DNA from: a virus
DNA length: 64,000 bases
Strand: one strand, 5' to 3'
Virus record (IMG/VR): IMGVR_UViG_3300010367_000168
Span: 1-64,000 of that record
Below, in pieces: positions 38,345 to 42,520 of the stretch. Under the pieces are notes generated by a model. It was not told where the DNA came from. It saw only the letters and a list, made by a program, of their open reading frames with translations, and searched no databases. The position numbers were made by a program, and so were the translations under genes. The stretch's first letter is position 1; each line of letters begins with the position of its first letter.

Positions 38345-38629
38345 GTGGCCGAGACCTTTGGCGAGCTGGGGCTACGGCCTCGCGAGACCAGCGTCATTCG
38401 GGATTGCCTGTGGGCTCGAACAGTGGTGCCCAATGGCCACTATCTGTGCAGCCCAGGGCAGATTGCATCGGCCAAGCGGCTCATCGACAAAGGGTTCATC
38501 ACCAACGTGACCAGCGAGGCGGGGATGTCCCCGAGGGTGCGTGGCGATGGCAGCGACGGTTGGCTCGTCGTGAAGATCGACGAAGCCAATATCGAGGCGA
38601 TGCGGAAGGCGGAGAGCGTCCAGAAATGA
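38345..38629 (+). CDS. hypothetical protein, tandem paralog 1
   Basis: GTG 38345 lies 6 nt after AGGGAGGA. VAETFGELGLRPRETSVIRDCL..YLCSPGQIASAKRLIDKGFI..WLVVKIDEANIEAM. Confidence 0.5.
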   Translation: MAETFGELGLRPRETSVIRDCLWARTVVPNGHYLCSPGQIASAKRLIDKGFITNVTSEAGMSPRVRGDGSDGWLVVKIDEANIEAMRKAESVQK

Positions 38630-38883
38630 CCAAGACGTTTGGCGAGCTGGGCCTTGAGCCCGGCGAAATGGACGTGATCAAAGCATGCCTGCACGCCTGG
38701 GATGTGACCCCGACCGGCTACTACCTGTGCAGTCCAAATCAGATCGCGTCGGCCGAGCGTCTGATCGCTAGGGGCTTCATCGCCGACGCGAGCGCGGAAG
38801 CCGGGCCCGCTCCCTTGGGGTGGTCGAAATGGCTCGTCGTGAAGATCGACGAGGAGAACATCGAAGCGATGAGCAGGGCTTGA
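38626..38883 (+). CDS. hypothetical protein, tandem paralog 2
   Basis: MTKTFGELGLEPGEMDVIKACL..YLCSPNQIASAERLIARGFI..WLVVKIDEENIEAM. ATGA overlap. Confidence 0.5.
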   Translation: MTKTFGELGLEPGEMDVIKACLHAWDVTPTGYYLCSPNQIASAERLIARGFIADASAEAGPAPLGWSKWLVVKIDEENIEAMSRA

Positions 38884-39021
38884 AGGGAGGGCGGGGCCGA
38901 CAAGGGTTTCCGGGGTCATCTTCACCGTTCGAGGATGTAGACCCCAGGAGCATTCGGCCCCGCGAAGATCATAGCAAAGCGGAGGGACGATCGCCATGCC
39001 GCGGTTCAACTCCGCTCTGGC

Positions 39022-39228
39022 CTACGGTTCGTCGACCGGGTCTGCGGCTTCGCTGCCTGCCTCACCGAGCACGTCTTCCTCCAGCGCGAACTCGCCCACG
39101 GTTTCATCGCCGTCCGCGATCTCGCCTTCCTTCTCGCCGCCTTCGATCCGGTCGGCCACCGCGCGCAGCAGCTCGGCGACCTTGCCCGCATCCCTGCCAA
39201 CGACATCCATGTCCAGGGCAAACGCCAT
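39022..39228 (-). CDS. highly acidic small protein (68-72 aa)
   Basis: Hand translation shows GC-rich third positions. About one third of residues are Asp/Glu. GGAGAG precedes the second ATG (39228); alternative start 39240. Confidence 0.5.
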   Translation of the reverse strand: MAFALDMDVVGRDAGKVAELLRAVADRIEGGEKEGEIADGDETVGEFALEEDVLGEAGSEAADPVDEP

Positions 39229-39297
39229 CTCGCTCTCCATCAAAGGGAAACCCGCGTCCTGCGGGCGGCATATGCTTTCCCGTTTTGAATCGGCGCG

Positions 39298-39332
39298 CAA
39301 AAGAAAACCCCGCCAGCTCGTGGCCAGCGGGG
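39298..39332 (-). terminator. minus-strand rho-independent terminator
   Basis: On the minus strand CCCCGCUGGC-CACGA-GCUGGCGGGG forms a 10-bp stem with two G-U pairs, followed by UUUUCUUUU. On the plus strand the same positions are C-A mismatches and no U-tract follows. Confidence 0.6.
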
Positions 39333-39955
39333 CTCAGTTTGGCATCCTGGCTGCGCCCAACCCGGAGAGGAATGGCGCAGTGCGACGGTGACAACCGCTA
39401 TGAAGCGCCGTCGCGAGGTGCCTCGGCGGCACCATAGCGCAGGGCGCCCGGCTTGGCCACCGGATGCGCTCGGGATGGACACCGATTCAGGGCTCACATA
39501 TGATTCCGTTGCGCCAACACGTCACGCACGAGCCGTCTTGGCCAGCCTCGGGTCTGCCACCATCGAGCCCCCCTCGTTGCCGGCGCCCGATGCGGCCGGT
39601 CCCCCTCCCGACTGCGGCTTCGACCGCCGTGGGCTCACAAGGGACCGGCCGCCCCCCAATGTTCGTCCAGCGTGTTGTGCGGGGAGTCCGCAACGGCTAT
39701 AATTGGCGCGCGAATGTTGACCCACACCATCCGCACCGGCCGGGCCGCTATCCGTCCCTTTTTGCGCGAGAGAGGCCGGGGCGGCCCGGCTACCATTCCC
39801 CCCATCATCAGAATGCCCCTGTGCCACGCACAAGTGGCGCGTCAAGGCCGTGCCACCGCCGCCGGTAGTCTCCGGGGCGGGTCCGCCTAGCAGGCGCCCT
39901 TGTGGGGCTTTGTGCGCCATAGGCGCCAATTCAGCCTGGCCGGGCCGACCTAACT
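39333..39955 (-). ncRNA. candidate structured non-coding RNA (family unknown)
   Basis: About 620 nt with no credible ORF in six frames, ending at the minus-strand terminator. Contains a perfect 12-bp long-range dyad (39592-39603 / 39641-39652) and nested hairpins. Confidence 0.25.
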
Positions 39956-40114
39956 AATTATGTGAGCTGGGTATTGACTCCGTTCGGCAGTCGCGCCCAC
40001 GCTTCGCGACTATTTAGGGGGGGCTTTTTAGTGACTGATTTCCTGTCTGCGGATGGCAGCACCACCAAACATCGCCGCTCATTCCGCCGGGCTTTCCGGA
40101 ATTGGATCTGGCCG

Positions 40115-40834
40115 ATGTTCCGCGATTTTCCACGCGAGCTTTTGCGGACGAAGCTGATCCGGTTTGGGATCAGCGCGACCCGGTTCGCGTGGTATGCGCT
40201 GCTGCTTCGCCGCATGAGGACGGCCGGCGCGACCGGCGGCGTCGCCAAGTCGACGCTCCAACACAACCTGCGCGGCATGCTCGACCTCCACGTCGAGCGG
40301 TCCGTTCGACTGATCTACCCGATCGCGATGTGGGCCGCCGCCCGGAGGACAAGCCTCGCAGATCTCAGGGTGCTCACAGTAGGGCCGCGGACCGAAGGCG
40401 AGATCTTCAACCTCGTCGCCCATGGCTTCCGTCGTGGCAACATAGTCGGTCTCGATCTGATCTCCTATTCGCCCACCATCGAGCTTGGCGACATGCACGC
40501 CATGGCATATTCGGATGCGACCTTCGATGTCGTGGTCGCCGGGTGGGTCATATCGTATTCGGACCAGAAAGACATCGCTGCCAGAGAGATCGCGCGAGTG
40601 ACGAAGCCGGGCGGGATCGTCGCCATCGGTATCGAGTGGGGCCGGAAGTCGCCAGAGGAGGTCGCAGCCGAGCGCACGGGCTATATCGTGGGGTCGGCGG
40701 TACGGCTTCGTTCAGCCCAGGCGATCCTTGACCTATTCGGCGACCGCGTCGACCGGGTGTATGCCCAAGTGGACGATCAGGACATCGCCGACGAGGAATC
40801 TGGCGATCTTCTCGTTGTCTTCCGGCTGAAATAG
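40115..40834 (+). CDS. class I SAM-dependent methyltransferase
   Basis: LRVLTVGPRTEGEIFNL..DLISYSP..DATFDVVVAGWVISY..KPGGIVAIGIEW (Methyltransf_11-like motifs I and post-I). Alternative GTG start at 40031. Confidence 0.65.
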   Translation: MFRDFPRELLRTKLIRFGISATRFAWYALLLRRMRTAGATGGVAKSTLQHNLRGMLDLHVERSVRLIYPIAMWAAARRTSLADLRVLTVGPRTEGEIFNLVAHGFRRGNIVGLDLISYSPTIELGDMHAMAYSDATFDVVVAGWVISYSDQKDIAAREIARVTKPGGIVAIGIEWGRKSPEEVAAERTGYIVGSAVRLRSAQAILDLFGDRVDRVYAQVDDQDIADEESGDLLVVFRLK

Positions 40835-40844
40835 AGACGCGGCC

Positions 40845-41000
40845 ATGTACAACTCGCAATACGATCTGAACGGCGACCCCGGCACCGCCGCCAACGAGTA
40901 TGGCTGGATGGTCCTGCTGGTGGTCGTAGCCGCCTGCCTCCTGTGCGTGCTGTTCAAGCCGAAGGCCGACCCGCGCCGCGACACGCGGGACGAGGAATAG
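40845..41000 (+). CDS. 51-aa single-TM micro-protein candidate
   Basis: Hand translation MYNSQYDLNGDPGTAANEYGWMVLLVVVAACLLCVLFKPKADPRRDTRDEE. Confidence 0.35.
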   Translation: MYNSQYDLNGDPGTAANEYGWMVLLVVVAACLLCVLFKPKADPRRDTRDEE

Positions 41001-41008
41001 GATCGCGC

Positions 41009-41248
41009 CTACGGGTGCTCATCAGCCTCCCCCCGCCAATAGGCCCTCGCCGCGCACCGGTGGCGCTGTAGGGCCTTGGCGCGTTTGGCCTGGGCCACGG
41101 CGGCCCGACGAAGCGCCTTGGCCTGTAGGGCCTTGCTGCGGCGCCGGGTGCGGTGGCGCTTGGGATGGCTGCGCTCCTGCCGATTGTCCAGGAGCGCTTG
41201 CCGGGCCTCGTCGCTACTCGGATCAGGAAACGAGCGCCGTGACATCAT
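41009..41248 (-). CDS. basic Arg/Lys-rich small protein
   Basis: ATGA overlap with the upstream gene stop. Repeated AKALQ units. Confidence 0.35.
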   Translation of the reverse strand: MMSRRSFPDPSSDEARQALLDNRQERSHPKRHRTRRRSKALQAKALRRAAVAQAKRAKALQRHRCAARAYWRGEADEHP

Positions 41249-41766
41249 TCATCCACGATGAGCAGGCTCGGGTTCGTGCCCAGCTGGCCGGCACCGAGAG
41301 CGAGCGGCAAATGCTTCTGGTAGCCGATGGCGTGGGACCAGTCGACGCGCCCGGTGTTGCGAAGCCGACGCAACGTCTCAATCGCCTCGGCGACGGTGAT
41401 GCGCTCCATGTAGGCAACGGCGCCGCTCCAGTCGAAAGCGTGGAACAGTTGGTCGGCGATGTGCTTTTTCAGCCCGAGCCATTTGGCAGCTACATACGGG
41501 ACCATTGAATCAAACGGCCAAGCGTTTTCGAGTGTCGGCCCGCTCCAGAAGCGAACCGGGTCTGCCAGCAGCGCGGCGTGCCCCGCCAAGCAGGCCACCG
41601 TGCCGCACTCGCCGTTGTCGCTGCACCACGCGGCCATATAGAACCACACTCGCTTGCCGGTCACCGGGTCGAGCCATCCGGGTTCGCCGACGTTCGGCAC
41701 AGCCTCCAGGTGCGCGATCAGCATGTCGAGGTTGGTGGTGGTCAGATTGACTGATCCATCGGGCAT
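41245..41766 (-). CDS. hypothetical protein (173 aa)
   Basis: AAGGAG RBS. The CGTVACLAGHAALL motif resembles a conserved phage family of unknown function. Confidence 0.55.
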   Translation of the reverse strand: MPDGSVNLTTTNLDMLIAHLEAVPNVGEPGWLDPVTGKRVWFYMAAWCSDNGECGTVACLAGHAALLADPVRFWSGPTLENAWPFDSMVPYVAAKWLGLKKHIADQLFHAFDWSGAVAYMERITVAEAIETLRRLRNTGRVDWSHAIGYQKHLPLALGAGQLGTNPSLLIVDE

Positions 41767-41782
41767 CACCGCTCTCCTTCGC

Positions 41783-42520
41783 CTATTCGTCTTCGGCCGT
41801 CATTGCAGCCACCATGTAATTGGTCAGATCCCTGGGGCGGGTCGGCTCGCACCTGACCTCGATCAGATCGACAGGACCGCCGGGCAGTCCGTCATCGAAG
41901 ACGCCAACGACGATGCGACCCGTGAACCAAGCGAAGGTGTCGAGATCGGTACGGCCGGCCAGCAGGATCGGGCCCTCGGCGAATTGCTCGTGCCCGTGGA
42001 CCACGTGCCGGCGACGGTGACCTCGCTCGTCGGCGGAATTGTAGAGCTTCCACAGGAGGACTTCCTCGCGCTGCTCATCGAGTGGCACCGCAGGGTCCAC
42101 GCCGGCATGGACGAAGACCCGATGCCGATCGACGTAGATCGGCGGCAGGTTGTACAGCCAACTCAGGTGCTCGTTCGGCACCACCCCAGCGTCGATCCGG
42201 CCGGTCGTCGGATGGCCATACGAAAGCAGAGTCTCGGCCCCGCCGTTGCCGATCCACCAGAGCATTTCCGCCAAGCGGCCGACGCATCGGAACATCATGT
42301 CCTCGTGGTTTCCCTTGAGGCAGACCCAGGTCCAGCCGGGCGGGGGGCCGGCCATGAGCCGGTCGATGATCTGTTTGCTCTGCGGCCCCCGGTCTACGTA
42401 GTCGCCGAGGAAAACAATCGTGCCAGGCTGACTCGCATGAGCCGCGATGGCCTCCAGCGCCGCCTCCAGGATGTCGAAGCGACCGTGCAGGTCGGCGATG
42501 GCATAGGTGACGCCGGGCAT
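41783..42520 (-). CDS. Ser/Thr protein phosphatase (lambda PPase-like metallophosphoesterase)
   Basis: YAIADLHGRFD, FLGDYVDRGP, LKGNHEDMM and VHGH motifs. GGAG RBS before ATG 42520. Confidence 0.85.
   Translation of the reverse strand: MPGVTYAIADLHGRFDILEAALEAIAAHASQPGTIVFLGDYVDRGPQSKQIIDRLMAGPPPGWTWVCLKGNHEDMMFRCVGRLAEMLWWIGNGGAETLLSYGHPTTGRIDAGVVPNEHLSWLYNLPPIYVDRHRVFVHAGVDPAVPLDEQREEVLLWKLYNSADERGHRRRHVVHGHEQFAEGPILLAGRTDLDTFAWFTGRIVVGVFDDGLPGGPVDLIEVRCEPTRPRDLTNYMVAAMTAEDE

Follow-up and report, generated by a model that had tools for sequence, protein, structure and literature searches.

Leader-embedded regulatory RNAs are known from several phages, among them c4 of P1, CI of P4, OOP of lambda and put of HK022. 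In the α-Proteobacteria, the cuckoo or CcsR small RNAs (ar14, RSs0680) comprise two to four adjacent hairpins, each carrying CCUCCUCCC in its loop, and contain no multiloop (PMC4615179). We compare here with these systems a long intergenic gap in a phage genome of 66% GC. The window analyzed comprises the first 64 kilobases (kb; 64,000 nucleotides, nt) of the complete 68.4-kb IMG/VR phage record IMGVR_UViG_3300010367_000168, which has direct terminal repeats. Between a small minus-strand gene encoding an acidic protein and a plus-strand gene for a class I methyltransferase lies a gap (39298-39955) that a sequence-only reading had put forward as one large, ornate non-coding RNA of about 620 nt. 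The results presented below indicate that this gap is probably a mosaic regulatory spacer, in which a putative minus-strand small RNA of ~125 nt, a divergent operator promoter with a geneless leader, a 50-nt filler and a GC-rich hairpin cluster lie side by side. Like GOLLD, ROOL and HEARO, the gap is a long, GC-rich and stem-rich stretch of phage DNA devoid of open reading frames (ORFs), but unlike these RNAs, and unlike OLE and raiA, it matches no covariance model and does not form one continuous conserved unit.

No blastn match to the gap DNA was found among 50,697 phage records. An exact search for one of its dyads and a search with the large terminase identified two metagenomic sister phages, G001 (73.8 kb) and G002 (72.8 kb), whose large terminases are 89-92% identical and which share the gap region at 72-75% identity. 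Further exact-pattern scans of viral contigs and metagenome returned G001 and G002 again and nothing else, scans of genome contigs produced no additional relative of the gap region, and viral-contig searches with the acidic protein and its 174-residue neighbor yielded no further relatives. DNA homologues are thus known only from G001 and G002, and comparative statements on the gap therefore rest on three sequences in all. At the protein level, homologues of the acidic protein (P0004-P0009) were found on Logan and JGI contigs.

The absence of any credible ORF, already asserted by the sequence-only reading, was borne out. The six-frame ORFs of the gap are rich in Gly, Pro, Arg and Ala and have no Pfam match, and a Pfam/PHROG search returned no family for any of them, nor for the small gene that the relatives carry here. 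A hidden coding frame was ruled out by codon-position GC, which is flat across 39290-39950 (both flanking genes have the usual third-position excess), and by the substitution pattern: mismatches to the relatives favor none of the three codon positions, and gap lengths are not divisible by three; the acidic gene presents the opposite, coding-like pattern. The sequence-only reading had also recognized no RNase P, tmRNA, group II intron, riboswitch or retron signature. At gathering thresholds Rfam recognizes only two tRNAs in the whole window, and at E≤10 a search of 39150-40100 gives four chance-level matches, none of them to a large RNA. The description of the region as highly structured, on the other hand, stands only in part, for the whole region folds better than dinucleotide shuffles (z of -3.6 on the minus and -2.5 on the plus strand) but is ordinary when set, with GC correction, against 43 other 663-nt windows of the phage (z of -0.18 on the plus and -1.58 on the minus strand). 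The structure of the gap resides in discrete modules, not in a single fold. Conservation is also blockwise and drops to 30-57% invariant positions between blocks: positions 38884-39656 align to both G001 and G002, positions 39707-39895 align to G001 and their core also to G002, and a poorly conserved spacer (~39394-39453) separates leftward from rightward units.

The left end of the gap bears an intrinsic terminator (Table 1), consisting of a GC-rich stem-loop and, directly after it on the transcribed strand, a U tract. As proposed beforehand, it is strand specific, since no U tract follows the stem on the plus strand. The accompanying proposal that an independent leftward transcript would end here is reinforced by the relatives, for all three phages have a terminator at this place, with differing stems and with the U tract confined to the minus strand. 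G001 presents a 10-base-pair (bp) stem (CCCCGCCAUG/CAUGGCGGGG) and G002 an 8-bp stem (AUGGCCGC/GCGGCCAU), so that the stem has been replaced in part in the former and totally in the latter while the U tract has been retained. In the protein set, the call for one acidic-protein homologue (P0005, on an 11.6-kb Logan contig) is over-extended by 38 N-terminal residues. These extra residues are the translation of DNA from a fourth phage that spans the 3' arm of the terminator, its U tract and the block beyond, all three of which thus appear to be kept there; the residues would fit the two G-U pairs of the window stem turned Watson-Crick, a pair change that must be presumed because third codon positions are unreadable from a protein.

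Upstream of the terminator on the minus strand, the three homologues of the stretch running from 39424 to 39297 fold independently, in separate minimum free energy (MFE) predictions, into one architecture, in which helix P1 encloses two stem-loops (SL1 and SL2) and is followed by a single-stranded linker of 5-9 nt and by the terminator. One nucleotide lies between SL1 and SL2 in both the window and G001, and the MFE structure coincides with the centroid in the window and in G002. On the minus strand the three homologues have z scores of -3.9, -3.7 and -4.7, as against -1.7, -1.8 and -4.0 on the plus strand, on which the junction fold of G001 is lost. A covariance model of the element (R1) scores 104, 97 and 55 bits, with a single copy in each phage; a further candidate copy in G001 (17.5 bits) was dismissed, as SL2 is absent from it. 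In the model-based alignment 86% of the cells are paired, versus at most 42% with the partners slid, and both-sided pair changes in P1, SL1 and SL2 number five, versus zero to one in the slid control. The alignment misplaces part of G002, and these pairing figures therefore understate the fit. In particular, P1 shows a G-C to A-U and a U-A to C-G change in G002, two pairs in the inner part of SL1 are flipped between the window and G001, and SL2 shows a C-G to U-A change; further both-sided changes are visible in SL1 and in the terminator by sequence comparison. Taken across three related sequences, this covariation is suggestive but does not amount to proof.

Between these variable stems, 13 nt of the SL2 apical loop (UUCCUCUCCGGGU) are invariant in the three phages and are CU-rich and resemble an anti-Shine-Dalgarno sequence. 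The transcript most likely starts near 39424 and would be ~125 nt long. In being of the order of 100 nt, with a CU-rich hairpin apex, variable stems and a terminator-like hairpin after them, the element is similar to the cuckoo/CcsR RNAs. It departs from them in having one UUCCUCUCC-bearing hairpin, set in a three-way junction, in being phage-borne and in matching no Rfam model, and so lies outside the family as defined by its repeated hairpins. We favor a small RNA that may be like cuckoo/CcsR in action, not in family membership. The best Rfam match of 39300-39381 (minus strand) is Burkholderia anti-hemB (RF02837), with which it has in common a CU-rich loop, a GC-rich terminator and a U tail; but the score of 20.9 bits (gathering threshold 49.5; E of 0.028 in a 951-nt search) makes it a non-member, and the alignment covers generic features only, leaving out the upstream half of the small RNA. 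As with the c4, CI, OOP and put RNAs, a short structured RNA is placed at the start of a unit, near operator-controlled promoters, and may act on the polymerase or on the message that follows; unlike these RNAs, with which it has no sequence or model similarity, it has no downstream target repeats that we could find beyond a Shine-Dalgarno pairing of 5-6 nt.

Two candidate promoters diverge from the region to the right of this element. The rightward one, P_plus, is the sole promoter-like site reported in 38500-40600 (0.3 expected), with predicted hexamers near TTGACA and TATAAT at a spacing within the 16-18 nt of sigma-70-type promoters, and the same site was picked up by the scan in G001 and G002. 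It overlaps one of two half-sites that had been attributed to an operator family. This copy (AGGGCTCACAT, 39489-39499) is real, being invariant in the relatives, where it makes up the left side of a complete AGGGC...GCCCT dyad, but the second copy (~39631) is conserved in neither relative. Six sites of the AGGGC-N9-12-GCCCT family occur in the 64-kb window, where 0.63 would be expected, and five of the six have N10 spacing. In G001 and G002 both halves are present, the P_plus spacer and -10 hexamer forming AGGGC-N11-GCCCT, a spacing unlike the N10 of most family sites, and in the window TCCGT stands in place of the right half, so that only the left half remains. GCTCACA, a 7-mer, occurs in the 64-kb window about as often as expected (9 found, 8.1 expected). 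The leftward candidate, P_minus, would be a weak sigma-70-like promoter of the small RNA. Its -10 hexamer stands 7-8 nt ahead of P1 in all three phages, and its counterpart in G002, GTGACA-18-TATTGT, was reported by the scan with 9 of 12 consensus positions.

Downstream of P_plus lies the best-conserved part of the region, a leader with 87% (G001) and 80% (G002) identity to its counterparts, compared with 73-77% for the acidic gene. Invariant positions make up 73-80% of each of its 30-nt bins, and its reading frames are not kept from one phage to another. Its three tandem hairpins (H-a, H-b and H-c) form in each of the three phages, with z scores of -3.5, -5.4 and -2.4 on the plus and -2.4, -5.0 and -2.7 on the minus strand. 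H-c corresponds to the perfect 12-bp dyad (39592-39603 and 39641-39652) enclosing a GCGG-CTTCGA-CCGC hairpin at 39614-39627 that had been described initially and was found as stated; it shows a U-A to C-G change in G002, and its inner hairpin is altered on both sides. Because it lies between the conserved P_plus and the start codon of the small gene of the relatives, the leader is here placed on the plus strand, to which it would belong if transcribed from that promoter.

The small gene in question is a plus-strand ORF coding for a Zn-ribbon-like protein (71% identity between G001 and G002), no copy of which was found anywhere in the window phage. The 50-nt filler at its site is unrelated to any sequence of the relatives, and BLAST homology to G001 breaks off at 39656 and restarts at 39707. 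In a fourth phage, G005, the ORF is located beside a macro-domain gene, in a different context and with only the coding part in common, and hence its behavior is that of a small mobile gene.

To the right of the filler, the long-range pair in the core of the GC-rich hairpin cluster shows a compensatory G-C to A-U change. This cluster begins directly after the Ro60 stop codon in G001, and in G002 it lies between the converging Zn-ribbon-like ORF and a minus-strand gene of 79 codons (41009-41248 in the window), which it abuts because G002 carries no cargo there. Given that it separates converging units in G002, the simplest relative, the cluster probably marks transcript ends; this view of it, as a zone of transcript ends at a junction of cargo exchange, is the least secure part of our account. 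The cargo on its right is the methyltransferase in the window, a Ro60 gene with a YrlA-like RNA in G001 and nothing in G002. The nearest relative of the methyltransferase (75% identity) is found in a provirus (L002:4243-5786), with no similar DNA upstream, and is translationally coupled to a gene for an SGNH/GDSL-like hydrolase, downstream of a primase; from this different context the methyltransferase can be regarded as a mobile cargo gene.

Table 1. Positions of the elements in and around the gap. Positions refer to the window unless a contig of a relative (L010, L011, L023) is named.
Feature	Position	Strand	Remarks
Y-RNA-like hairpin	38891-38964	-	~75 nt, 3' of acidic gene
Acidic gene (small), left flank	stop 39022, start ATG 39225	-	Shine-Dalgarno GGAGAG precedes ATG
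Conserved block, terminator to acidic gene	39226-39295	-	UCAAAACGGGA..GCCGCCCGC, hairpin 39250-39266, GGAGAG
Intrinsic terminator	stem-loop 39305-39335, U tract 39296-39304	-	13 pairs (8 G-C, two G-U), then UUUUCUUUU
Three-way-junction core	39341-39422	-	P1 39416-39422 with 39341-39348; then SL1, SL2
SL2 apical sequence	39358-39373	-	RNA reads AUUCCUCUCCGGGUUG
P_minus, candidate small-RNA promoter	-35 TGGCCA 39454-39459, -10 TATGGT 39431-39436	-	17-nt spacer; read from sequence
P_plus, TGGACA-17-TATGAT	39476-39504	+	predicted, 10/12 match; invariant in three phages
Conserved leader	39505-39656	+ (by position only)	three tandem hairpins H-a, H-b, H-c
H-a	~39508-39546	+ (by position)	leader hairpin
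H-b	~39548-39590	+ (by position)	CGAG-C5-CUCG at 39564-39576
H-c (12-bp dyad)	39592-39652	+ (by position)	inner hairpin 39614-39627
Window-specific filler	39657-39706		50 nt; site of the plus-strand Zn-ribbon-like ORF of the relatives
Zn-ribbon-like ORF	L010:2267-2473 (G001), L011:2123-2368 (G002), L023:2471-2695 (G005)	+	Cys/His pattern, 68-81 residues
GC-rich hairpin cluster	39707-39953		72-74% identical to G001; core also in G002
Cluster block identical to G001	39712-39739		28 nt
Cluster 10-bp dyad	39739-39748 / 39781-39790		
Cluster core	39810-39923		long-range pair CGCACA(A/G) / (U/C)UGUGCG
Methyltransferase cassette, upstream end	39954-40030	+	inverted GCTCACATA copy at 39959-39967; no counterpart in G001/G002
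Class I methyltransferase, right flank	start GTG 40031	+	Methyltransf_11 match 7e-10

According to the mosaic-spacer interpretation, P_minus would start a transcript at ~39424 and the RNA would fold at once into a compact three-way junction, with the CU-rich, anti-Shine-Dalgarno-like sequence displayed at the apex of SL2 and followed by the linker and by a terminator with a long U tail. Such an RNA could be a base-pairing regulator, the CU-rich apex of SL2 occluding ribosome-binding sites, and read-through of the terminator would make it also the leader of the acidic-protein gene. In the rightward direction, the operator-controlled P_plus would start the three-hairpin leader, which in the sister phages would precede the Zn-ribbon-like gene; as the window phage is devoid of this gene, its leader would run into 50 unrelated bases.

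Several observations weigh against this interpretation. P_minus of the window matches 8 of 12 consensus positions and falls under the scan threshold. The covariation draws on three DNA homologues only and hence carries little statistical weight, and the slid-partner control is uncorrected for relatedness. Targets complementary to the SL2 apex are not enriched within the phage (10 found, 10 expected). In the leader, counts of G-U versus A-C and fold scores are mixed as to strand, and in the GC-rich cluster the folds differ between phages except for one long-range helix. Finally, the promoter scan found the stretch from the terminator to the acidic gene free of promoter-like sites in all three phages, and an acidic gene lacking a visible promoter fits a cis-acting leader as well as it does a trans-acting RNA.

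This last point bears on the alternative that survives best, namely that the junction element acts in cis as a leader, be it an attenuator, a processive antitermination RNA of the HK022 put type or a sensor akin to a riboswitch, and decides on the passage of polymerase through the terminator into the acidic gene and the Y-RNA-like hairpin beyond it. Such a role would also agree with the near-invariance, in the three phages, of the ~70 nt between the terminator and the acidic gene, and with the ability of CUCUCC at the SL2 apex to pair with the GGAGAG of this gene. Two stem-loops with a one-nucleotide gap, just past a promoter, likewise recall put RNA. Inspection of the three sequences, however, disclosed no conserved antiterminator pairing with the 5' arm of the terminator, conserved unpaired nucleotides from which a ligand pocket could be built are almost absent from the junctions, Rfam yields no riboswitch or leader family at E≤10, and a strong terminator with a long U tail is what stand-alone small RNAs have. 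We look upon the cis-acting leader as a serious competing account, though a rather unlikely one. Within the block between terminator and gene, an invariant CCCGC-loop-GCGGG hairpin (39250-39266, minus strand) and the UCAAAACGGGA block (39267-39290, minus strand) precede the Shine-Dalgarno sequence of the acidic gene, and together they may constitute an element for processing or stability of its mRNA.

It could be argued as well that the gap is for the most part inert debris of recombination, left by loss of the Zn-ribbon-like gene and insertion of the methyltransferase, that the apparent small RNA is just the promoter-proximal 5' end of the transcript of the acidic gene and regulates nothing, and that ordinary promoters and terminators alone function. 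Among the three phages gene content does differ at two points within the region or next to it, the right operator half-site of the window is altered and the filler resembles nothing in the relatives. Debris would nevertheless hardly be expected to contain a leader that outconserves the neighboring protein gene, or 13 nt at the SL2 apex that remain invariant amid stems changing compensatorily, and both the junction RNA and the leader persist in a phage without the downstream gene; we consider this explanation improbable.

A more speculative reading involves the Y-RNA-like hairpin, which is 95-100% identical in the three phages, the adjoining DNA being ~75% identical. It gives weak matches to the YrlA and YrlB models on the Ro-binding stem (23.5 bits against a gathering threshold of 69, and 20.5 against 97, respectively). 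As in the YrlA/YrlB RNAs (PMC4201824), a long hairpin carries GCCGAAUG near its 5' end; the motif begins at nucleotide seven of the hairpin and fits GNCGAAN0-1G, which Chen et al. (2014; PMC4201824) proposed as the contact of Rsr. In contrast to these RNAs, the hairpin has no tRNA-like domain and its scores are far under gathering. A TROVE/Ro60 gene was found in G001 only, none being present in the window phage or in G002, so that no such gene accompanies the window hairpin within 4 kb on the same strand; the G001 counterpart of the hairpin is situated ~1.2 kb from the Ro60 gene, on the same strand. As G001 alone has Ro60, the window hairpin may be an orphan Y RNA of the YrlB type.

The G001 Ro60 gene (550 codons; L014:1878-3530, minus strand) occupies the place of the window methyltransferase, and upstream of it (L014:3525-3703, minus strand) lies a YrlA-like, tRNA-like module that scores 31.5 bits, under gathering; L014:1878-3703 corresponds to ~40377-42200 of G001. 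A stem directly upstream of this gene gives a hit of 31.5 bits, against 38, to the model for nematode stem-bulge RNA. Identification of the right part of the G001 region, beside Ro60, as a Y RNA was rejected, for it has no Rfam support; the GNCGAA motif of the inner hairpin is not conserved. Further along, a tRNA-Met(CAT) is found between the minus-strand genes of 79 and 174 codons in G001 (L014:4598-4674) and G002 (L015:2342-2418), and at that site the window has ~100 nt (41223-41320) and no tRNA-Met.

Taking these elements together, one may conceive of a new phage RNA module in which the three-way-junction RNA gates an orphan Y RNA that hijacks the RNA-decay machinery of the host Ro60. A promoter would be followed by the junction RNA, the terminator, the acidic protein and the near-invariant YrlB-like hairpin, to which G001 would add Ro60 and a YrlA-like RNA upstream, and the junction RNA would be an unclassified regulatory RNA, acting either as a put-like element or attenuator or as an anti-Shine-Dalgarno regulator. 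We rate this module as a long shot. Least tenable of all is the single ornate RNA first proposed, transcribed on the minus strand from 39955 to 39298, which the good folding of the G-rich minus strand relative to shuffles, the terminator at its left end and the many GC-rich stems might have suggested, but which is very improbable, given that the corresponding DNA of both relatives is broken by a protein gene on the plus strand, that the region is divided at 39431-39504 by two conserved, diverging promoters, that conservation is blockwise, that folding is ordinary against the genome background, that Rfam offers no match, and that the promoter scan, at 39950-40010 where the sequence-only reading had advised looking and near 39955-40030 in general, found no sigma-70-like promoter on the minus strand.

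The removal of this false lead (the gap is not a new large ornate RNA) leaves a candidate small RNA of this phage, ~125 nt in length, whose hairpin apex is invariant and anti-Shine-Dalgarno-like and for which Rfam has no family; it adjoins an operator-controlled promoter and lies upstream of a putative DNA-mimic-like acidic protein. The Y-RNA-like hairpin, which stays nearly unchanged with or without a Ro60 gene, is perhaps the more interesting lead. With regard to mosaic phages, long gaps free of ORFs can arise where the loss or exchange of small cargo genes brings short regulatory modules next to one another.

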